Part shown: positions 8,054 to 25,648 of the stretch, one piece after another
How the letters are laid out: each line of letters starts with the position of its first letter
Position numbering within the stretch: position 1 is the stretch's first letter
Origin: a virus
Lineage: Duplodnaviria; Caudoviricetes
Reading direction: 5' to 3' (one strand)
IMG/VR virus record: IMGVR_UViG_3300010355_001062
Span: 1 to 64,000 of that record
Length of the DNA stretch: 64,000 bases
The notes under the pieces: model-generated
Databases searched by the model: none
What the model was told of the DNA's origin: nothing
What the model saw: only the letters and a program-made list of their open reading frames with translations
Made by a program: the position numbers and the translations under genes

Positions 8054-9280
8054 TTACACTGAATAAGCTTGTTCTTCGTAGGGTGGCAATTCGGGTACAG
8101 CTAACTTACCTAAAGCCCAGTAGCGTAAAGCATCCCATATGTGGTTGTGCTTAGTGCTATATGTCTCTTCCCCATTCAAGCTTTTTGATGGTATTATCAC
8201 ATATTGCTCTTGTTCTTTCATCCAAGCTGTATGAACTACTAGATACAATGTGTGCTCTTTTATTATGCCCACTCCACGTTTAATGGAGCCACCACGTCTG
8301 TTAGCTGATTTTATGTTGAAGCCATTCTCTTTCTTTAATAAATCAGCCTGCTCTTTAGCTACTGCATCATCCATTTCTACCTCAGTGTAGCCTACGCCGA
8401 CTTCGTCCATCATTTTAGCCAGCTCTGGTCTAGTTATGTAATTACCATAAATAGCACACCTAGCGTAAATGCGATTAGGGTAATCCATATCACGCCCTGC
8501 TTCTACCATAGCTAATGGGTCACCGTCATAACCATAATCTAAGCCGTAGCCCCTATGAGTTAGCATACGAGCTTCGAATTCGTGGTTTAAAATCCAGCGC
8601 ACATTAGGATAAACAGCTCCTTCAACTACACCTGTGAGACCTAAGCCATACACACGCCATTTATTAGCATCAGTAGCTTTATAGCTCATTATCGTAGCTA
8701 TAATATTAGGCGAACAATACGGGTTATCCATGAAAGTGGATATTAGTAGTATTGCTCTAGCCTGTTTTTGCACATGTGTATGAGCCCAGAACTTTGCTGT
8801 AGGGTTAAAATCCAGTATTACTTTATTCGTAGTCCGTAAACGAAGCTGATCATAAATGCTGTAGGCTATACCATTAGCTTCGTTTATAAATAAATATTGC
8901 CGTTTACCTGATTTAGCTCCTTGCTCTGTCTCAAATACCCGAAATTCGATAACTGACCCTGTATCAAATAAATACACATGATTAGTGCGATTGAACTTAA
9001 CTACACGATCCTTGACTTCCGGCGTTACAGCTAATATATTAGCTATATCGCGTATAGGCCCACTACGCATGTTCGGAAAGCTTTCTCCCGTGATCGTTAT
9101 CACAGCATTAGCCTCGGTTATAGCTATTAATAATAACCATTGCAGGGCGGAATAAGTTTTCGAAGAGCTTGTACCGCCCTGCAATATTATGGTATCGTTA
9201 TCCTGCCAAGCCTTAGCGAGCTGCCAAAATACTCTGGTAGTATTATGCTCATTGAACGGGGCTGGCGCGGCTACACTCAT
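8054..9280 (-). CDS. terL: Terminase large subunit (PBSX/Terminase_3-like)
   Basis: Walker A LQGGTSSSKT, FINEA Walker B, LDFNP, nuclease GLDYGYDGDP and HIWDALRY. Confidence 0.92.
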   Translation of the reverse strand: MSVAAPAPFNEHNTTRVFWQLAKAWQDNDTIILQGGTSSSKTYSALQWLLLIAITEANAVITITGESFPNMRSGPIRDIANILAVTPEVKDRVVKFNRTNHVYLFDTGSVIEFRVFETEQGAKSGKRQYLFINEANGIAYSIYDQLRLRTTNKVILDFNPTAKFWAHTHVQKQARAILLISTFMDNPYCSPNIIATIMSYKATDANKWRVYGLGLTGVVEGAVYPNVRWILNHEFEARMLTHRGYGLDYGYDGDPLAMVEAGRDMDYPNRIYARCAIYGNYITRPELAKMMDEVGVGYTEVEMDDAVAKEQADLLKKENGFNIKSANRRGGSIKRGVGIIKEHTLYLVVHTAWMKEQEQYVIIPSKSLNGEETYSTKHNHIWDALRYWALGKLAVPELPPYEEQAYSV

Positions 9281-9804
9281 TAATTAAGCTTTTCGATGTT
9301 ATATGCTACTACTACTTCCAGTAGAATACCGCACTCGGTAAGGTATGCACATAAAGCGACTAATGTACAAGCTAAGCGAAATTTAATAGCTTCAGCACGG
9401 GCTAAGCTCAATACGCCGTCATCGTCGCGCTGTGCTTTTTTCCATACATTAGCTATCTCAGTGCCATTAGCTACAGCGTGCATTAGTGGTGCATTTAACA
9501 TGTGTATTTCCTTGGCCATTTCGGTCAAAGCTTCCTGCGCCTTATCTAGGCTTTCCACGTATATATCCACCATAGCTAACAAGTCAGTTAGCTTTAGCTT
9601 TAGCTCATGGGCTACAACAGCTATATACCATAGCACGTCGCCAGCTTCGTCTACTAGCTTATTCGACATCTTATTGAGATACTGCTCACGCAGAAGCTCA
9701 CCCAATTCTCCGCATAAGCCCAGCACTGGGTAATTAAGATTAGCTCCAACATTAGGGTATCTAGCCGTTTTCAGGGCGGCCTTCTGATAATCGTTGATTT
9801 TCAT
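9280..9804 (-). CDS. MazG-like nucleoside triphosphate pyrophosphohydrolase
   Basis: DYQKAALKT...LGLCGELGEL...DEAGDVLWY; a second degenerate MazG half; ends YNIEKL. Confidence 0.85.
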   Translation of the reverse strand: MKINDYQKAALKTARYPNVGANLNYPVLGLCGELGELLREQYLNKMSNKLVDEAGDVLWYIAVVAHELKLKLTDLLAMVDIYVESLDKAQEALTEMAKEIHMLNAPLMHAVANGTEIANVWKKAQRDDDGVLSLARAEAIKFRLACTLVALCAYLTECGILLEVVVAYNIEKLN

Positions 9805-17211: not shown

Positions 17212-18054
17212 TCAGAAATATCGAATTTCTTTTAAGCCGGACAAATTTTCCTTATTATCAAGCATCCATTGTTTAGCTTGAGCGTAAGGAGCCGGGCAGA
17301 ACATGTTATAAATAACCTCACTGTAGCCCGTGAGCAGATAATTATCGAATAGGTAATTATAGGCCGAACTAGGTAAGTTATTGTATACGCAAATACAGTT
17401 CAATACATCATCCACAATACCGGTACGTAAAAAGTGTTCTTTGGTTTCAGTGTCAATCTCTTTTATACACGCACTGAATCGCTGGAATTGCGATTCATTA
17501 TATACTGGAGGCACGTTATCACCTGGACAACCTAGAAAAGCTTTCTTCACATTAGCCTTAACGGCTATGTCAATAGCTATTGAGTGATCATTAGGTAACC
17601 TGTATTCCTTCCTATCAGAATATTTCAGCCAGCTATGGCCATGCCCACGTACCATAGCTTCGAAATCGCCATCATTGCTTACTAATCGAGCTATAGCATA
17701 ATGGCTAGTCAATATGTAAGCTAAATCATCGGCTTCTAAGCCTTCGATACCGAAAGTGAGAAAAGCACCAGCCAACCTTTCCTCAGTCTCCGGCCGTATT
17801 TCCATGTATTTTTCGTTACCCACTCTGCCATTTTTATAGCTAGGGCTTAAAGCCTTTCTCCAAGCACGTCCCTTATCCATCACTAGCACTGTAGCATGTT
17901 TATTGGATTGTGTCTTAGAGCTTAGCTCCAGTGCTTTAACTGCCTCAATGACTTTATTAGCTAGTTGCTCTGCTGTTATGTCTTCTTGTGCAGTGTATTT
18001 ACTGATCACATAGTAGTTAGCTAGAGTGACGATAGAGTTATCTATTATTAACAT
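17212..18054 (-). CDS. 5'-3' exonuclease/flap endonuclease (T4 RNase H/T5 D15-like)
   Basis: LIIDNS, MDKGRAWRK..SPSYKNGR, GLEADD, SNDGDF, GCPGDNVP. Confidence 0.88.
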   Translation of the reverse strand: MLIIDNSIVTLANYYVISKYTAQEDITAEQLANKVIEAVKALELSSKTQSNKHATVLVMDKGRAWRKALSPSYKNGRVGNEKYMEIRPETEERLAGAFLTFGIEGLEADDLAYILTSHYAIARLVSNDGDFEAMVRGHGHSWLKYSDRKEYRLPNDHSIAIDIAVKANVKKAFLGCPGDNVPPVYNESQFQRFSACIKEIDTETKEHFLRTGIVDDVLNCICVYNNLPSSAYNYLFDNYLLTGYSEVIYNMFCPAPYAQAKQWMLDNKENLSGLKEIRYF

Positions 18055-18973
18055 TGTGTAGTTGTTTTTGTCTTAGAAAATTAGTTAGTTTCTGATCTAC
18101 GATCTCGCTTTTGTAGTAAAACACTCTAGCGAATTCTGGGCCTCCTAGCTCTAGCAATTCGCATATGCAAAGTAAGTATTTGAATACATCTATGGCTTCT
18201 TCTACTGCATGATTCCTATCGATAGTAGCAGGCCCTGGCTGATGTAGTTTATACTTCGTAGCCCTTAGTAGCTCGAAAGTCTCGTCGGTTAACGCAAGTA
18301 TATATTCGTGCACGCGCTTAATCTTAGCTGATTTGCTCATGCGCTTCACATCGTAGATGCGTGAATTAAAAGCGCTTTGTACTTGCATAAATTTCGCTAA
18401 GTCAATAGCGGGTTGTACATCTGGAGTTATCAAGCGCTCACAAGCTGTCATAACTCCTTGTAATGAATCTTGCGGTGCAATCAAGCGATAGCTAGCAAAA
18501 CACTTAGCTTCGTCTAGCATCGACTTACGTAAGCTATAGAAAGCTTCCTCTGAATAGGTAAGGCCATTTTTCTCGGCTGCGCCACGTTCGATATAAAGGT
18601 CGTACGTATTATCCAGAATTAATAATGTATAATCAAGTGCCTTAAGTCGACTACGCAAATCTTCTGGCGGGATTATCATAGCCTCCAAGCCTATATTCTT
18701 TTGGCGAATAGGGCCGTATACCAATTCAGTAAATGGCGAACGATCGCATAGAATAATAGCATCCTCAGGCATGTTATCAACAAAACCGTAGAAAGCCTCC
18801 ACACATCCAGCATAAAAATATGCTATATGCTCTCTAGCATATTCAGGTATATTATCCTTCATCGAATATAAGAAAGCATTATAGCCTTGTTGCTTTAGCT
18901 TAGTGGTAAGCAACGCAGCTACAGTTGTTTTACCAGTTCTGGGTAAGCCGTCAAATAGGATTACTTTTTTCAT
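18038..18973 (-). CDS. Fusion of a dNMP kinase (thymidylate kinase-like) and a dimeric dUTPase/dCTPase-like NTP pyrophosphatase
   Basis: N: FDGLPRTGKTT, CDRSPFTELVYG. C: QVQSAFN...LALTDETFELL...KYKLH...VEEAIDVFKYLL. Confidence 0.8.
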   Translation of the reverse strand: MKKVILFDGLPRTGKTTVAALLTTKLKQQGYNAFLYSMKDNIPEYAREHIAYFYAGCVEAFYGFVDNMPEDAIILCDRSPFTELVYGPIRQKNIGLEAMIIPPEDLRSRLKALDYTLLILDNTYDLYIERGAAEKNGLTYSEEAFYSLRKSMLDEAKCFASYRLIAPQDSLQGVMTACERLITPDVQPAIDLAKFMQVQSAFNSRIYDVKRMSKSAKIKRVHEYILALTDETFELLRATKYKLHQPGPATIDRNHAVEEAIDVFKYLLCICELLELGGPEFARVFYYKSEIVDQKLTNFLRQKQLHNVNNR

Positions 18974-20064
18974 GTGTTAAGTGCTTTTAATAGAGCGCTC
19001 TCCAGCTCTGTATGATCATTTATTATCCATTCGTGATCCGGTATTTCGTCATTCGGTACTGTAATTATAGTATTACCGTAGTCTAGCGCTTCGTAACAAG
19101 TGTAGTGTAGGCAATGATGCATAGGTTCTAGTAATGGTATTATACAACCGGCCCCATACTGTAATAGGCTATGATAAGTAGCCTTATCCGAACTATAGAT
19201 GGTGTTGCCAATGCTAACGCCATTGGAATCGTGCAATACGTACGGTGAGTATACTTTATAGCCTTGCTTTAGTAGACCATGTAGCACATTAGCTATTATA
19301 GGTACTTTATAAGGCTCATGCGATGGTTTCCAAGGTACTAATATAAAAGGAGCTGTAATGTGCTTGGGTTTTGCCATAACAGGGGCTATACCGCGTACCA
19401 AAAGATCACCTGATTTATAACCCTTGGTTATTCTACTAGCTTCTGGGTATAGAGCTAATTGGTCTAAAGTACCAACCAGCATTGGTATATTGTTATAGAG
19501 CTCCCCATCTATGTATTTCATTTTACGATATGACTCTATAGTGCACTCCGCGCCAGCTATAGCATAAGCAAGATATACTATGTCGATATTTTTGTATGCT
19601 TTTATTGCATCTAATAGCGACAATGCTGCTTTCTGTGGAGCAATATAGATAGTATTGAAGTAACGTAATATAGTGTGTATTTTGCACATATCGTTGATAT
19701 GTAGAGAGCGTGTATGGCGTGGGTCTTCGCCATAGGTCATAAATAAATACACTATATTTATACCACGTGCCCACATGTTTTCCTGAATGCTTGCAAGATA
19801 GCCTAAACCGGCTGTGGTAAGTTTCTCGGGTACAGCTATACAATATAATGTATCATTGTCGGCTATAGTTTGTATAAACCCAAGCACTGTCAGTAAATTA
19901 CCATCACGCTCTATATTATAAAAGCCGTCGCTCCTATAGCCATAAACAGGTATGAATAAGCTCTTTTGTGCAAAATTACCGTGAACTCTGTCATAGCTAT
20001 TTAGTAATAAGCTTGGAGTTAATGCCCAGTATAATCCACTTATTTTATCAGAGTAAGCTAGCAT
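18970..20064 (-). CDS. Putative GT-B glycosyltransferase-like DNA modification enzyme
   Basis: 364 aa, two-domain size, C-terminal YEALDYGNTIIT resembling GT-B E-A-x-x-x-G; context in the modification cluster. Confidence 0.45.
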   Translation of the reverse strand: MLAYSDKISGLYWALTPSLLLNSYDRVHGNFAQKSLFIPVYGYRSDGFYNIERDGNLLTVLGFIQTIADNDTLYCIAVPEKLTTAGLGYLASIQENMWARGINIVYLFMTYGEDPRHTRSLHINDMCKIHTILRYFNTIYIAPQKAALSLLDAIKAYKNIDIVYLAYAIAGAECTIESYRKMKYIDGELYNNIPMLVGTLDQLALYPEASRITKGYKSGDLLVRGIAPVMAKPKHITAPFILVPWKPSHEPYKVPIIANVLHGLLKQGYKVYSPYVLHDSNGVSIGNTIYSSDKATYHSLLQYGAGCIIPLLEPMHHCLHYTCYEALDYGNTIITVPNDEIPDHEWIINDHTELESALLKALNT

Positions 20065-20770
20065 GCTTTGTCATTACTACGATGAATGTTTTATATTTGT
20101 CGTCTCGCTCTATGATTCGGAAGTCCCACCCTTTCTTTATGGCTATATTCTCAGCAGTATACACATTCATGTAATCGATGAAGCCATCACGAGCTGCATC
20201 ATCGCAGTGGTACTCCATCATCACAAACTCAAGTTGTGAAGCTAGGAGCTCGTCGAAAAAAGTATGCTCAGCTCCCTCGACATCAATCTTTGCACACTTA
20301 GCGTTAGTCATATTCATGACATAGCTGAATTGTAATGCTTTGATAGGTAGCCGAGTCACGGAATGTGTATCGCTTAAACCCGGTGCCAGTGTGTGCCTAC
20401 CTGAATTGGTGCCGAGATTACCATATAATATAAATTGCTCCAGATTATTAGGCCCTACGATTGCATAATTCAATGGCACTATATCGTCGTAATACGCTGT
20501 ATTCTTCGACAATAGCGCAAAATTGAATGGCTCTGGCTCGAAAGTATAAATGCGCGAAGCACCTCGTCTATGTATTTTAATAGAGGAGCTACCTACATGC
20601 CCACCTATATCTAACCAGATAGGTTGTATAAATTGGCTCTCACTGCCTTCGTGGCTAACCATGCTTTTAGCTAAGTACTCTTTATAAAGAGTATCTAGTA
20701 TATTATCGTATGCTTTCTCAGCTACCACGAAAGCATCGGCTTTATGTTCTCTTATTAACCTCACTAGCAT
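20048..20770 (-). CDS. FkbM-family SAM-dependent methyltransferase
   Basis: LDIGGHVG, YTFEPEPFNFALLSKN, KIDVEGAE. Confidence 0.85.
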   Translation of the reverse strand: MLVRLIREHKADAFVVAEKAYDNILDTLYKEYLAKSMVSHEGSESQFIQPIWLDIGGHVGSSSIKIHRRGASRIYTFEPEPFNFALLSKNTAYYDDIVPLNYAIVGPNNLEQFILYGNLGTNSGRHTLAPGLSDTHSVTRLPIKALQFSYVMNMTNAKCAKIDVEGAEHTFFDELLASQLEFVMMEYHCDDAARDGFIDYMNVYTAENIAIKKGWDFRIIERDDKYKTFIVVMTKHASLL

Positions 20771-21588
20771 CCTATAAGTTTTTTCGCTTGTTCAATATTG
20801 TTTGCATAGATGTGCGACGAAGCTATTTGGAAACTCAATGAATTAAGTTTATAGCTTACTGTATCAAGCCTACCAAGCGCTGTGACAAATGCTTCTACAA
20901 ATTTGCTTATGTTATACAAATCATATAGCATAGTTATATAGGCATTGGATGACCTGAATGTAGCCACTACATCGATATTGTAGTGGAAGCCTATATCGGC
21001 GTCGCGCTTGAATATGACAATATCGCTACAGCACGGATATTCCAAATTAGTGTTAATATCGCGCAAGAAATCATCGGACTTATCCAGTATATGAAATACT
21101 ACACGTCTGGAGTTATCGCGCTGTATTTCGCGCAGGTTACCTTCCAATTGGCTCAATAACCTAGGGCCGTAAGCCGTAGAGAAATTAGCTGGTATCTCAG
21201 CTCCCGGCATGAAACGACGCACGCTAGGATTTATCTGAGCTAGCTCCTCCATGTCAGTGGAGCCGGACATCATCCAATCGCAGAATTTTTGCGCGTAAGC
21301 ATAATTCCAGTGCGGAAAAGCTTTATTCATGTGTTCCCAAGAATGAGGCCATTCGCATTTGAATGAGTAATTTATAATCTCATTCATATAGCCGAGCCGG
21401 CTATCGCATACATAATCAGGATGCTGTATTAACTCAGTGAGCAGGGCCATATAGCTCCTTACTAAAGATGTGTCCTTTGTCGGTTTCATAGAAATGATAT
21501 TGAAAGTTTTCAGCATAATAGCGAATGCATAATTCGATAAGTGCTGCAAATAGATGTTTGTCGAATTTGGATGATTTAGGCTTAACAC
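20764..21588 (-). CDS. Thymidylate synthase-fold, dCMP-type nucleotide-modifying enzyme (true start probably ATG at 21489)
   Basis: AYGPR, NSRR, YPC catalytic Cys, FRSSNAYITMLYD (Asp at TS N177), SSHIY. Confidence 0.85.
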   Translation of the reverse strand: MLSLNHPNSTNIYLQHLSNYAFAIMLKTFNIISMKPTKDTSLVRSYMALLTELIQHPDYVCDSRLGYMNEIINYSFKCEWPHSWEHMNKAFPHWNYAYAQKFCDWMMSGSTDMEELAQINPSVRRFMPGAEIPANFSTAYGPRLLSQLEGNLREIQRDNSRRVVFHILDKSDDFLRDINTNLEYPCCSDIVIFKRDADIGFHYNIDVVATFRSSNAYITMLYDLYNISKFVEAFVTALGRLDTVSYKLNSLSFQIASSHIYANNIEQAKKLIGC

Positions 21589-21988
21589 CGGCTAATAAAC
21601 TTACATCCCAATCCAGCTTACGAAAATTGCTTTCTAAGTCTGCTAGTGTAACGCCGAACACAGTAAACTGGAAATTACCCTTAGTTATGAGTTGTGGTCT
21701 GACACCGAATACATGCTCCATATTAAATGAATGTACCTCAGCATCCGCCCAAGAGTCGCCGGTCAATTCACGCATTATTTTCATGCCTCCGCGCACTATA
21801 GCACCGAAATAGAAACGATTCTGGTCTAGCGTACGTAGCTCTTTCTTCTCAGTACACTCAACCGTAAACTCTGGCTCGGTTGAATGGTATATAATCGATT
21901 TATTGATCAATGGGCTATTTACTTTTAAGTAAAGCTCATTATCGATTATTACTTTAGTACAGTTTAGCTGAATTGGTTTCATAGACAT
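21434..21988 (-). CDS. NinB/YbcN-like protein
   Basis: RTLDQNRFYF and SSKFDKHLFAALIELCIRYYAE. Confidence 0.55.
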   Translation of the reverse strand: MSMKPIQLNCTKVIIDNELYLKVNSPLINKSIIYHSTEPEFTVECTEKKELRTLDQNRFYFGAIVRGGMKIMRELTGDSWADAEVHSFNMEHVFGVRPQLITKGNFQFTVFGVTLADLESNFRKLDWDVSLLAGVKPKSSKFDKHLFAALIELCIRYYAENFQYHFYETDKGHIFSKELYGPAH

Positions 21989-22027: not shown

Positions 22028-22927
22028 TTATTTCTTCAATTTACCCATCAAGCCTCCGCCTGTCCCGCTGCCACCAAATTGTTGTTTCTTCTTTTCTTCT
22101 TTCAATGGTCTAGCATTCTTGGGGCGCGGCTCGCCCTGAAAGATGTAGTTCATCCATTCCATGCGCTCTTCGGCTGGTGTGACGCCTTCTTTGAAAAATT
22201 CATAAGCTCCACCGGTCTGCCATTCTAGCAGTTCAGCTTTGTGAGCTTCAGTGAAAGACGGCGCTGTTTCCGGGTTGAACGTGAACTCGATACGCTCGGT
22301 TTTATACCTAACTTGATTGTTTTCGTTGGTCTTCAATGACTGCCAAACACGCGCATCAGGCCCATATACTGTAACCCCAGGGTTGTTAAAAGCATTCTGC
22401 GTTACTGTAAGCACCTGCGTCCAAAGGCTTTCACGGAAGCAGCCCATGCGGATTGCTTTCTTCGGGTCTTCGTCCACTTCAAAAGCATTCATAAATATAC
22501 CGTTTTCGATCACAGGTTTCAGTTCGATGACTGGAGCCAAGTATTGCGATGAGAATTGGAATTTGGCATAATTATCCTTATGGATAATCGCCGCTATACC
22601 CTCGTCGGTTTTGGCCATTTCCAAAGCCGCTAGATACATGTCCATTGCATCGTCCTGCTCTCCAATAGAAGTAGCCGATACGATACGATGGTGTTCCAGA
22701 AACCAGCCGACCTGGTCAAAATAGGTCAGCCCGTTGGCTGGAGTAAGATCGAACGGAATCAGTCTATAGAAGACTTCATCCGGGTAGCCTTGCTTACCTA
22801 CTTGGTCGACGTATAACATTCTTTTGTCAGCTCGCTCTCCATACTGAGCTTTTGCACGTTCGGCGATCGCTTCCTGAGCTTGTTTGACCTTATTAAGGTC
22901 TAGATTGAATTCAAAGCCTGTTGCCAT
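22028..22927 (-). CDS. Single-stranded DNA-binding protein (T4 gp32-like)
   Basis: YRLIPF motif, ~300 aa, own promoter, high-expression codon usage, next to the polymerase. Confidence 0.6.
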   Translation of the reverse strand: MATGFEFNLDLNKVKQAQEAIAERAKAQYGERADKRMLYVDQVGKQGYPDEVFYRLIPFDLTPANGLTYFDQVGWFLEHHRIVSATSIGEQDDAMDMYLAALEMAKTDEGIAAIIHKDNYAKFQFSSQYLAPVIELKPVIENGIFMNAFEVDEDPKKAIRMGCFRESLWTQVLTVTQNAFNNPGVTVYGPDARVWQSLKTNENNQVRYKTERIEFTFNPETAPSFTEAHKAELLEWQTGGAYEFFKEGVTPAEERMEWMNYIFQGEPRPKNARPLKEEKKKQQFGGSGTGGGLMGKLKK

Positions 22928-23011: not shown

Positions 23012-25648
23012 TTATTCAAGTTTAATGAAGCAATTTCTGATGGCTGATGCTATTTGATCAGCACTATCGTATTTGATGTCCTTGAACTCGTGCCAGTTAG
23101 TTTTAGTAACAGACCAGTCTATATTCATAGGCACAACTAAACGTGAAACATCCACATTCAGATAGTCATCGGCTCTTGGGTTAACCATCAAATCTTCATA
23201 AATCGGAGCTAGAATATCCATAAAAGCATCGGACATATAGATGTGAACAGAGTCATGTATCGTATTACTAAATCTGGACATATCGTGGGGTATAAGCTTA
23301 CTTAATACCCCCATAGCGAATATAGTCCACTCGCCAGACGATCCTTGAATTGGTGAGTTAATAGCTTGACGTTTAGCTTTAGCCACGAGCTTACGGTCGT
23401 ATGAGTAAATATCCGGCAGTCTCCGCTTACGGCCGAAAATAGTACGTACATAGCCGAATTTCTGTGCTTTGGCTTTATATATTTCCCACCATTCAGGTAG
23501 CCGTTTGTAGACTTTCAGCAACCCATCTAATTGCTTCCTAGCTTCCTCTTCGCTTATGATCTTACCATTGGTAGCTCTACGCACATAATCAATATAGCCG
23601 AATACGCTAATACCGTATGTACCAGAAAAATTACCCATCTTTCCCCAAGTCCTGCCCTGTTTATAAGCTACTGGATCAGTTACGGCTAGCGCTTTGAATT
23701 CTTCTAGCGATAATTCCATAATACCTGAACCAGATACTGAGTGCAAATCTTGCTTATCCAGATAAGCTTGTTGCATAGTTTCATCGCCGGAAACGTTTGC
23801 AATCAAGCGTAGCTCAGCTTGCGAATAATCGATCTGAATAAATGTCTGCGGGCCGTATTTATTCGGCGGTGGGCATATAAAACATCTACGCACAGTATTT
23901 ACACCCCACACCAAATCCTGATCATCGCGTATATATACGTGATTACTGATATTTTGCAGATTGGGGTTGGAGGCGGAAACCCTACCAGTCCGTGTGCCAT
24001 GACATTTATACTCAGTATGCAGAAATCCTTGTGGGTCGGGTAGAGTATCGAAAGCTTTGTAGTAAGTATTGCGCAGCTTAGTTACCATCTTAATGGTTGA
24101 GAACGTAAGCAAAATATCCGAGTTAAATCTCTGAGCTAATTCCAATATATAACCTTTGTCGGTCTTAGCTTCTTTCTCACCCTTCATACCAACTTTCATC
24201 GGCATGTCCATAAACTCATAGCCATATAACCATTCTCTAACTTTGATAGGCGAACCTAATGAAAATTTTACTTCCGGCACGGAAGTTCTAGCAGCTACAA
24301 TATCATCACTCCATTTCGTCAGAAATCGCTGTCTAGGTAATTCTTTAGCTCGCTCAGCGTCAATCTTAGCTTGTATAGCCGCTATGGTAGTTTGCTGAGC
24401 TTTATCTTGTAAATATAGCAAATAAGCTTTAACTTTCGGGTGAGCATAAAATTCTCTAGTCCTTCGCTCTATCGCTTCTGAGCATTTTTCAATAGCCTCG
24501 GCAACCTGGGCTTTATTGATTAATGACCCTCGAAATGATGTCCAAGCTAATGCCCAAGCTGATGGCATTACATGTGATCTGAATAAACGATATAATGTGC
24601 CATCGCCATCATCAGTTAATAGCATCCACTCGAATTGTATGCAAGCTCTGATAGTCATATCAGCATCAGTAGCTCCGTATGCTGCTAGCTCTTTCATTGG
24701 AATAGCTGCCCAGTCTGTATCGGGTGGTAATTCACGCTGGTAGCCAGCGAATTCAGGAAAATAAGTCTCGGTGATTATTTTCAAGCCGTTCAATGTATTC
24801 TCGTCTAATACATGTGAGGCTAGCATTACATCAAACCATTCGCCGTAAAATTTGGTCATTCCCATTTGCATGCACCAAATACCTTCCATCATTAGGTTAT
24901 GCACGACTTTTCTTATCGAGGTATTAGCGAAAATCTTTTCTTCGATCTCAGAGTTGATATAAGCTATCCTGTCCATTATGGACCACCCCTCCCATTCCAC
25001 AGTCTCAAAATGCATATACGGTATAATTACCGCTTTGCCTGGACGCGTCGCTACGGACATGATAGTTACATAGCCTAGCCATGATTTCAAGCTAGTTGTC
25101 TCGAAGTCAAATGCCCATAGTTTGTCGATCTGAGCTTGCGCTATCAAATCGTCGAATTCAGCTTTAGTAGTTATAATAATATGCTCAGTAAGAGCGGGCT
25201 TTGCTCTAGCTTGCTCCAAACCTGTAACAGCGAAATATAATTCATCGAATATCCTTTTCGCTATCTTCTGCTCGTAAGCTGGGTTCTGCTCAACAGCAGA
25301 AGGTGAATAGCAAGGAATCCATGTAGTGCCATTTTCTTGCACTATACGCTGCTCTACTAATTCGCTCATCTTGCCGACCAGACCGAATACTTTGCTTACT
25401 CTAGCTCCGAGTAAAAATATTACTTGGTAATCAGCATACTTATTAAAGTCTACTGATTTCCTAAGCTGAGCATCCGATAACTTCAACTCGCTATCGGTAT
25501 TTAAGTATTGATAATCGAAAGTTATATGTTCCGGTACTTTTATAGCACCTGTATCGAATAATGCACGGCACAGATAGTTATAGCCACGGCTGAAATCACC
25601 TCGGTTATCTACTCCAGGTCTATTGTCACTTAGAAATAGAACTCTCAT
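23012..25648 (-). CDS. polA: Family A DNA polymerase with an N-terminal UDG-like domain and 3'-5' exonuclease
   Basis: Exo DFETT/HNL/YGATDAD; motif A DYSQAELR; motif B KMGNFSGTYG; motif C IHDS; N-terminal FLLGARV...CYSPSAV. Confidence 0.95.
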   Translation of the reverse strand: MRVLFLSDNRPGVDNRGDFSRGYNYLCRALFDTGAIKVPEHITFDYQYLNTDSELKLSDAQLRKSVDFNKYADYQVIFLLGARVSKVFGLVGKMSELVEQRIVQENGTTWIPCYSPSAVEQNPAYEQKIAKRIFDELYFAVTGLEQARAKPALTEHIIITTKAEFDDLIAQAQIDKLWAFDFETTSLKSWLGYVTIMSVATRPGKAVIIPYMHFETVEWEGWSIMDRIAYINSEIEEKIFANTSIRKVVHNLMMEGIWCMQMGMTKFYGEWFDVMLASHVLDENTLNGLKIITETYFPEFAGYQRELPPDTDWAAIPMKELAAYGATDADMTIRACIQFEWMLLTDDGDGTLYRLFRSHVMPSAWALAWTSFRGSLINKAQVAEAIEKCSEAIERRTREFYAHPKVKAYLLYLQDKAQQTTIAAIQAKIDAERAKELPRQRFLTKWSDDIVAARTSVPEVKFSLGSPIKVREWLYGYEFMDMPMKVGMKGEKEAKTDKGYILELAQRFNSDILLTFSTIKMVTKLRNTYYKAFDTLPDPQGFLHTEYKCHGTRTGRVSASNPNLQNISNHVYIRDDQDLVWGVNTVRRCFICPPPNKYGPQTFIQIDYSQAELRLIANVSGDETMQQAYLDKQDLHSVSGSGIMELSLEEFKALAVTDPVAYKQGRTWGKMGNFSGTYGISVFGYIDYVRRATNGKIISEEEARKQLDGLLKVYKRLPEWWEIYKAKAQKFGYVRTIFGRKRRLPDIYSYDRKLVAKAKRQAINSPIQGSSGEWTIFAMGVLSKLIPHDMSRFSNTIHDSVHIYMSDAFMDILAPIYEDLMVNPRADDYLNVDVSRLVVPMNIDWSVTKTNWHEFKDIKYDSADQIASAIRNCFIKLE

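Follow-up and report, generated by a model that had tools for sequence, protein, structure and literature searches.

Organization of the cassette

The window analysed here is a stretch of 64,000 nucleotides that corresponds to positions 1 to 64,000 of the IMG/VR virus record IMGVR_UViG_3300010355_001062 (Duplodnaviria; Caudoviricetes). The source record is a virus contig of 75,320 bases, the completeness of which is rated 100%. A long run of minus-strand genes in the window contains a cassette of four overlapping genes, which encode a thymidylate synthase (TS)-fold enzyme, an FkbM-family methyltransferase, a GT-B glycosyltransferase (GT)-like protein and a kinase fused to a pyrophosphatase. 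Homology to a recently described pathway suggests that the cassette probably replaces the cytosine of the phage DNA with an O-substituted 5-hydroxycytosine (5hoC). The genes and domains of the cassette are as follows.

20764..21489, minus strand: TS-fold enzyme, predicted flavin-type 5-hydroxy-dCMP (5hodCMP) synthase; 241 aa from ATG, with an open frame extending to GTG 21588 (274 aa)
20048..20770, minus strand: FkbM-family S-adenosylmethionine (SAM)-dependent methyltransferase, predicted O-methyltransferase; 240 aa; PF05050, TIGR01444
18970..20064, minus strand: GT-B glycosyltransferase-like protein; 364 aa; family of proposed base-proximal 5hoC glycosyltransferases
18038..18973, minus strand: kinase-pyrophosphatase fusion gene; 311 aa
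18464..18973, minus strand: Tmk-like P-loop kinase domain, predicted 5hodCMP kinase; residues 1 to ~170 of the 311-aa fusion
18038..18418, minus strand: all-alpha nucleoside triphosphate (NTP) pyrophosphatase domain (MazG / dimeric-dUTPase-like), predicted dCTP-clearing; residues ~186-311 of the fusion

The kinase/GT, GT/FkbM and FkbM/TS gene pairs overlap by 4, 17 and 7 nt, respectively. These overlapping start and stop codons indicate that the cassette is one operon. Coordinates and Pfam, PHROG and NCBIfam scans bear out the preliminary description of this DNA, which had reported four overlapping genes of these types. The TS gene most likely starts at ATG 21489 rather than at GTG 21588, because every relative begins at the equivalent 'MKP.KD' sequence and the GTG extension runs into the upstream 184-aa gene.

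The TS-fold enzyme

The TS homolog matches PHROG 160 at 4.9e-17. A phmmer search of the PDB returned a single strong match, the 'thymidylate synthase' entries 9iqc/9iqu/9ir2 (E 1.3e-32). Over the stretch compared, the 9iqc chain and RB69 gp48 have nearly the same sequence; a literature search found no paper on structure 9IQC. When isolated phages were searched by tblastn, 385 records were retrieved at E<=1e-3. The TS homolog shares 31% identity with RB69 ORF048c over 99% of the query (E 4e-32), and also matches DLP3 (9e-30), Thanatos-2 (8e-25) and RL38J1 (8e-14). The 100 matches listed of these 385 records comprise RB69-, DLP3-, Thanatos- and RL38J1-type phages along with a few weaker ones, and T4 is not among them. 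An IMG/VR related-locus search with the TS protein alone returned no relatives.

Conversion of dCMP to 5-hydroxy-dCMP was demonstrated experimentally by Lee et al. (NAR 2026; PMC13326640) for four enzymes: RB69 gp48, DLP3 gp80, that of Thanatos, and RL38J1 gp216. These verified synthases bind flavin and take the oxygen from O2; the proposed diagnostic is an Asn replacing E. coli Asp169, accompanied by N177D, associated with cytosine specificity, and by an acidic residue at L143 (PMC13326640). Active-site positions are given here in E. coli ThyA numbering. In the alignment, the window enzyme retains the catalytic C146, the phosphate-binding R126/R127 and R166, S167, Y94 and H207, and carries the substitutions E58F, W80R, L143E, D169N, G173T and N177D. 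The motif FRSSNAY supplies N169 in both the window enzyme and its close relatives. E58, W80 and G173, which are present in T4 gp42, are absent from the window enzyme and from the four verified hydroxylases. The whole folate-site set of gp42 (E58, W80, D169 and G173) is thus replaced by F, R, N and T, and the window enzyme does not conform to the gp42 type.

In a maximum-likelihood tree, the window enzyme, its relatives and the four verified synthases form a clade of 13 rows, separated from ThyA, T4 gp42 and three further folate-type rows by a branch with 99/96 support; the tree comprises only 18 rows and has long branches. The TS of contig L007 (4045-4758) keeps Asp169, yet it has F58, K80, E143, V173 and D177 and lies in an FkbM-GT neighbourhood. 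Either the D169N signature is not universal in the clade, or the product of the L007 lineage differs.

As residue pattern, nearest relatives and tree all point to the verified hydroxylases, the TS homolog is most likely a flavin-type 5-hydroxy-dCMP synthase and not a hydroxymethylase. The preliminary description had placed the TS homolog in a cytosine modification pathway, in agreement with the cytosine-type Asp found at the N177 position, and had drawn an analogy to T4 gp42, which makes a hydroxymethyl base. The latter view is replaced here, because the enzyme carries the hydroxylase signature and the base is most likely 5hoC.

The GT-B protein

At E<=1e-3, a search of 1.84 billion representative proteins yielded only nine relatives of the 364-aa protein, and a Pfam scan gave no match. 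An AlphaFold model built on these nine relatives (predicted local distance difference test score, pLDDT, 80.4) adopts the GT-B fold with two Rossmann domains. Foldseek searches with the model returned 412 matches at E<=0.001; among the matches listed, almost all are GT-B glycosyltransferases. A hidden Markov model (HMM) of the GT family matches both halves of RB69 gp46:47, DLP3 gp79 (9e-26), Thanatos-2 TH2_066 (1e-25) and RL38J1 gp215 (3e-15), E-values being computed against a small set of open reading frames (ORFs). Hhalign comparisons of the family with the RB69 halves gp47 and gp46 are collinear, with Prob values of 95.6% and 95.9%; gp46:47 is a single gene that a sequencing error divides into two in the record (PMC13326640). 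Eleven residues are invariant over 14 family members, and the window protein has all 11. The GT-family profile found no real match among PDB sequences, the likeness to 9iqz (the HY126 GT) being at fold level only. An IMG/VR related-locus search with the three closest GTs returned no relatives.

RB69 gp46:47, DLP3 gp79, the Thanatos GT and RL38J1 gp215 are the proposed first, base-proximal glycosyltransferases of their pathways (PMC13326640). Thanatos DNA is mono-arabinosylated, and the single arabinosyltransferase of this phage is syntenic with RB69 gp46:47 (PMC13326640), a position that TH2_066 occupies in Thanatos-2. By profile homology, the 364-aa protein is a member of this proposed base-proximal 5hoC GT family, and the corresponding activity is predicted. 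Both the modelled fold and the homology to the RB69, DLP3, Thanatos and RL38J1 enzymes agree with its earlier labelling as a GT-B-like protein.

The kinase-pyrophosphatase fusion

Residues 7-157 of the 311-aa protein match the Pfam Thymidylate_kin family PF02223 at 26.9 bits (cut-off 27) and PHROG 761 at 2.5e-14, and its P-loop reads GLPRTGKTT. An HMM of the kinase domain matches the kinases that adjoin the GT genes in RB69 (gp45, 1.7e-7), DLP3 (gp78, 7.9e-9) and Thanatos-2 (TH2_067, 2.3e-8); it did not reach RL38J1 gp214.

The C-terminal domain matches dUTPase_2 PF08761 over residues 191-294 at 18.3 bits, which is below the cut-off, and PHROG 173 at 5.4e-7. A profile of this domain matches PDB entries of YpjD (1.6e-5), 2q73 (3.9e-5) and dimeric dUTPases (1e-3), as well as 5ie9; the match to dCTP pyrophosphatase 1 is weak (E 0.16-0.22). 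Residues E46, E49, E74 and D77 of the domain alignment are invariant and form the metal-binding E-x-x-E / E-x-x-D pattern. We infer a preference of the MazG-like domain for dCTP from pathway logic only. In contigs L007 and L011, kinase and pyrophosphatase are encoded by separate adjacent genes, the latter specifying 115-142 aa. Since these two distant relatives have the domains as separate genes, the fusion is, as judged by this comparison, a local event.

The FkbM methyltransferase and its possible substrate

With 34.2 bits for PF05050 (cut-off 22.7) and 51.8 bits for TIGR01444 (cut-off 37.7), the FkbM protein exceeds both thresholds. Its invariant residues, D54-x-G56-xxx-G60, E78-P79 and K161-x-D163-x-E165-G166-x-E168, correspond to the glycine-rich SAM motif, the acidic motif II and the K-x-D-x-E-G-x-E motif, and the predicted model shows the class I Rossmann methyltransferase fold. 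Neither a DPPY/NPPY nor a PC motif was found in the sequence, and by this criterion the protein does not resemble DNA methyltransferases of the amino or C5 type. In the group of polymerase-A phages to which the window belongs, the FkbM gene is always placed between the hydroxylase and GT genes, in four divergent lineages. None of 80 other viral FkbM loci carries the GT of the cassette nearby.

Characterised members of the family, such as FkbM and NoeI, are O-methyltransferases that act on hydroxyl groups. Two kinds of hydroxyl would be available to the enzyme in the predicted pathway, namely the base's own 5-OH and those on the attached sugar. There is roughly an even chance that the target is a hydroxyl of the attached sugar. 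A 5hoC that stays unglycosylated and would be converted to 5-methoxycytosine is a distinctly weaker candidate, and a target of some other kind is about as probable as the latter. Sugar methylation is favoured over 5-methoxycytosine because the GT belongs to a family that needs a free 5-OH and keeps all of the invariant residues. A literature search found no paper on 5-methoxycytosine or O-methylated glycosyl-5hoC in phage DNA, and none describing an FkbM enzyme in a DNA hypermodification cluster. Chances appear balanced that the FkbM enzyme creates an undescribed DNA base, either O-methylated glycosyl-5-hydroxycytosine or 5-methoxycytosine.

An FkbM gene was also identified in the unrelated IMG/VR contig L054 (2642-4620), ~600 bp upstream of a T4 gp42-like cytosine TS (E58, D143, D169, G173 and D177). 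On the basis of these residues, L054 is a second, independent FkbM-TS pairing, of the hydroxymethylase type.

Gene neighbourhood and conservation

The cassette is flanked by the following genes.

23012..25648, minus strand: family A DNA polymerase with a 3'-5' exonuclease domain; PF00476 2e-59, PF01612 1.7e-12
22028-22927, minus strand: 299-aa protein in the polymerase-TS interval; no family match
21434-21988, minus strand: 184-aa protein in the polymerase-TS interval; resembles NinB-type recombination proteins in Atlas (score 0.92, lead only)
17212..18054, minus strand: 5'-3' flap exonuclease, downstream border of the cassette; PF02739 37.1 bits (cut-off 34.3)

The flap nuclease and kinase-fusion genes share 17 nt. 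The preliminary description had placed the cassette between an SSB (single-stranded DNA-binding protein)/polymerase region and a flap exonuclease. Polymerase and flap exonuclease were recovered through PF00476 and PF02739; the SSB label was not confirmed for the genes located between polymerase and TS. A role of the 184-aa gene product as flavin reductase partner of the TS-fold enzyme was considered and rejected, as Atlas groups the protein with NinB-like recombination proteins (lead only). A second, separate MazG-like gene (9280-9804, minus strand; PF03819 18.2 bits, below cut-off) adjoins the large terminase gene (8054-9280) in the window.

A blastn search of the cassette against 50,697 phage records gave zero matches, and isolated phages thus hold no nucleotide-level relative. 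Close relatives from sewage and other metagenomes (TS identity 59-65%) have the whole replication module in common with the window. In three further lineages (L007, the P0015 contig and L011), the GTs of which are 21-24% identical to the window GT, the gene order is polymerase, two small genes, TS, FkbM and GT. L007 and L011 continue through kinase and pyrophosphatase to the flap nuclease, and the P0015 contig ends just after the GT. Both small genes that separate polymerase from TS hold the same position in all four lineages. The preliminary description had made conserved linkage to TS homologs a touchstone of the prediction, and this survey of neighbourhoods reveals that GTs of 21-24% identity still occur in the TS-FkbM-GT order. 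Close relatives carry an extra 121-aa gene between GT and kinase fusion (L003:10508-10873, with equivalents in the P0006 and P0007 contigs). The window phage does not have this gene; there, the end of the GT gene overlaps the start of the kinase gene by 4 nt.

Comparison with known systems

The order TS-GT-kinase is common to RB69 (gp48-47:46-45), DLP3 (gp80-79-78), RL38J1 (gp216-215-214) and Thanatos-2, and the window features TS-FkbM-GT-kinase. Since both gene order and homology are shared with these phages, the window cassette is, on comparative grounds, the published 5hoC core with an inserted methyltransferase and an attached pyrophosphatase, minus the sugar-nucleotide genes. The pathway is consequently not new as a whole, as had first been supposed, because its TS-GT-kinase core is the published 5hoC glycosylation pathway of RB69, DLP3, Thanatos and RL38J1 (PMC13326640). 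New elements are the FkbM methyltransferase, the fusion of kinase and pyrophosphatase, and the occurrence in a small phage lineage of PolA type that has a Bacteroidota marker.

The arabinosyl-5hoC pathway of RB69/HY126 (Escherichia) and DLP3 (Acinetobacter) resembles the window in several features. It has a TS-fold synthase with D169N, N177D and L143E (PMC13326640), an adjacent GT of the same family (gp46:47, gp79), followed by a Tmk-like kinase (gp45, gp78), and a location close to the polymerase within the replication region. The all-alpha NTP pyrophosphatase superfamily is represented in RB69 and DLP3 as well, by dCTPases (PMC13326640, Table 1); in the window, the dCTP role is a prediction. 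Unlike these phages, the window phage features an FkbM gene between synthase and GT and a kinase fused to the pyrophosphatase. Furthermore, neither arabinose-nucleotide genes (isomerase, kinase/pyrophosphorylase, phosphatase) nor a second or third GT nor a T4 gp1-type deoxynucleoside monophosphate kinase turned up in the ORF scan, which was confined to the larger ORFs outside the structural half of the genome. The U32 protein of the RB69/DLP3 pathway was likewise not found; it was rejected as a component of the cassette, as there is none in the 75-kb genome. The window phage is ~75 kb in size and has a family A polymerase, in contrast to the Straboviridae myoviruses RB69 and DLP3, which have a family B polymerase, and TS identity is ~31%.

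Rhizobium phage RL38J1 (Pootjesviridae), the DNA of which contains hexosylated 5hoC, shares with the window the series synthase (gp216), proposed galactosyltransferase 1 (gp215) and nucleotide kinase (gp214). It differs in that it lacks an FkbM gene and that other parts of its genome encode additional GTs and a UDP-galactopyranose mutase. By analogy with RL38J1, a hexose from a common nucleoside diphosphate (NDP)-sugar is the likeliest type of donor for the window GT.

The glucosyl-5-hydroxymethylcytosine pathway of T4 (gp56, gp42, gp1 and the alpha/beta-GTs) follows a similar logic. dCTP is destroyed, and dCMP is modified at C5 by a TS-fold enzyme, phosphorylated, incorporated and glycosylated. 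However, gp42 is folate-dependent and retains the residues lost in the window enzyme. The T4 base bears a hydroxymethyl group, whereas the predicted window product would bear a hydroxyl, with the sugar directly on the ring oxygen. T4 has no methyltransferase step corresponding to that predicted for FkbM.

The conversion of 5-hydroxyuridine (ho5U) to 5-methoxyuridine (mo5U) or uridine 5-oxyacetic acid (cmo5U) in tRNA, carried out by TrhP/TrhO and then by TrmR or CmoB, resembles the predicted window route in that formation of a 5-hydroxypyrimidine precedes alkylation of its oxygen by a SAM-derived group. TrmR is the enzyme that converts ho5U to mo5U. In contrast to the window, the substrate is RNA, and neither the hydroxylases (the U32 protein TrhP and the rhodanese-type TrhO) nor the methyltransferase is related to the TS fold or FkbM. 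We know of no other precedent for a 5-methoxy reading of the FkbM step.

GT clusters with a U32 protein

Distant members of the GT family cluster with a MazG-like gene, a Tmk-like kinase and a Peptidase_U32 protein (L008:6480-10035, L010:2166-5262, L014:5949-9084 and L015-L021). Phages carrying these clusters have PolIII-alpha or another replication module. A TS-fold gene was not found in 7 of 8 such IMG/VR genomes (completeness 91% or more in 5 of the 7) by searches with Pfam PF00303 and a TS profile; the profile recovered the gene in control genomes, and the eighth genome contains a canonical ThyA. L008 additionally carries a dCMP deaminase, a uracil-DNA glycosylase, a GT47-like GT and a UDP-galactopyranose mutase.

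RB69 gp50 and Thanatos-2 TH2_068 are U32 proteins located within 5hoC clusters; gp50 has been labelled only as 'sugar or heterocycle reductase' (PMC13326640). Because U32 proteins include TrhP, which is required for ho5U in tRNA (PMC6599085), they may, by analogy, provide an alternative route to a 5-hydroxypyrimidine in DNA. A literature search found no paper on a U32 protein acting on phage DNA. The TS-less clusters tie the GT family to 5-hydroxypyrimidine chemistry and lend independent comparative support to its acting on 5-hydroxypyrimidines; they also bear on the role of the U32 gene in RB69-type clusters.

Proposed pathway and alternative interpretations

All steps of the pathway are deduced from sequence and homology. 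The MazG-like C-terminal domain of the 311-aa protein would hydrolyse dCTP to dCMP, which would both remove the canonical nucleotide and feed the next enzyme. The TS-fold enzyme would then hydroxylate C5 of dCMP with flavin and O2, yielding 5-hydroxy-dCMP, which would be phosphorylated by the Tmk-like N-terminal domain and converted to the triphosphate by a host NDP kinase. The modified nucleotide would be incorporated by the family A polymerase of the phage. The GT-B enzyme would attach a sugar from a host NDP-sugar to the 5-oxygen through an ether bond, and the FkbM enzyme would add a SAM-derived methyl group. The outcome would be restriction-resistant DNA. Homology and conserved linkage sustain the earlier proposal of a cytosine-replacement and hypermodification cassette with a T4-like logic, consisting of a pyrophosphatase, a TS-fold C5 enzyme, a kinase and a GT.

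Three other interpretations were weighed. The TS homolog could be a folate-dependent dCMP hydroxymethylase as in T4, with GT and FkbM decorating 5-hydroxymethylcytosine to give glycosyl- or methoxymethyl-cytosine. N177D and an acidic residue at 143 are common to the window enzyme and gp42, the relative L007 keeps Asp169, and L054 pairs an FkbM gene with a gp42-like TS. The loss of E58, W80, D169 and G173, the lack of T4 among the 100 matches listed, and the well-supported branch that sets the window enzyme apart from gp42 and ThyA all speak for the hydroxylase, and T4-type chemistry is quite improbable. Less improbable, although still unlikely, is that 5-methoxycytosine is the main product. 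FkbM would then methylate 5-hydroxy-dCMP, or the 5hoC of DNA, directly in a TrmR-like manner, and the GT would serve a subset of sites or another role. Such a reading fits the FkbM gene following directly on the hydroxylase gene with a 7-nt overlap, the failure to find sugar-nucleotide genes, and the tRNA precedent for SAM-dependent O-methylation of a 5-hydroxypyrimidine (hydroxylation background, PMC6599085). Yet the GT retains every family-invariant residue, and its family supplies the only GT of the mono-arabinosylated Thanatos, so that it most likely needs a free 5-OH; full methylation would deprive it of its acceptor, and the FkbM fold search carries no substrate information.

Least probable is that TS, kinase and pyrophosphatase serve ordinary metabolism, making dTTP and removing dUTP, while the targets of GT and FkbM are glycans or proteins of host or virion. 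Database labels (thymidylate synthase, thymidylate kinase, dUTPase) would suit this view, and FkbM and GT-B enzymes usually act on glycans. However, the Asp at the N177 position and the lost folate residues speak against dTMP synthesis, GT and kinase are homologous to proteins flanking verified 5hodCMP synthases, and the five cassette functions are adjacent in four divergent lineages (as far as the GT in the P0015 contig).

Replacement of cytosine by an O-substituted 5hoC therefore remains the preferred interpretation. Some observations weigh against it. The phage is known from metagenomes alone, and the scan described above revealed no sugar-nucleotide genes. D169N is not universal within the TS clade, as evidenced by L007, and among PDB sequences the MazG-like domain is best matched by MazG and dUTPase proteins of a generic kind. 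Even for RB69 and DLP3, base-proximal GT activity is no more than a proposal, purified single GTs were inactive on 5hoC-DNA, and Lee et al. could not tell whether the first glycosylation occurs on the nucleotide or on DNA (PMC13326640). Foldseek searches with the FkbM model gave generic class I methyltransferases only, with no clue to the substrate, and 78 of the 80 other viral FkbM loci have neither TS nor GT nearby, which means that the family as such is no marker of DNA modification.

Host and other genes

A 481-aa protein encoded beyond the window (L026:8064-9509, corresponding to 72064-73509 of the record) combines the two domains of a copper type II ascorbate-dependent monooxygenase with a C-terminal sorting domain for type IX secretion (PF18962 at 41.9 bits; cut-off 27), which is an unusual cargo for a phage. 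To our knowledge, type IX secretion occurs in Bacteroidota only, and the sorting domain makes a Bacteroidota host, as proposed in the preliminary description, plausible.

In Tenacibaculum phage PTm1, an isolated phage of Bacteroidota, gp167 features the 5hodCMP synthase signature (F58, E143, N169 and D177; L024:2409-6606, gp163-gp167). Neighbouring genes bear the annotations 'guanylyltransferase' and 'histidine phosphatase', and the GT-family HMM finds gp163 at 1e-15. PTm1 is predicted from these sequences to carry glycosylated 5hoC.

Another ORF (L026:4989-5510) has a weak match to an HD-domain, YfbR-like 5'-deoxynucleotidase (21.4 bits, just below the cut-off), and its product could be a further nucleotide-pool enzyme of the phage.

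Significance

DNA based on 5hoC was recognised only in 2025-2026, so far with arabinose or hexose decorations only and in large myoviruses of Proteobacteria. The cassette puts the same 5hoC core into a small polymerase-A phage that probably infects Bacteroidota, and its conserved methyltransferase points to a form of cytosine that would be chemically new in DNA. The four-gene set is compact and open to direct testing by the published assay, which combines expression in E. coli with liquid chromatography-mass spectrometry (PMC13326640).

If the prediction is true, a methylation branch would be added, in Bacteroidota phages, to the 5-hydroxycytosine family of phage DNA hypermodifications. The new base would affect the supply of enzymes for making modified DNA, as well as base-calling of environmental and wastewater viromes sequenced by nanopore or PacBio; metagenome assemblies of this kind are the source of the nearest relatives of the phage. 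It would also affect the sensitivity of phage DNA to restriction and CRISPR.

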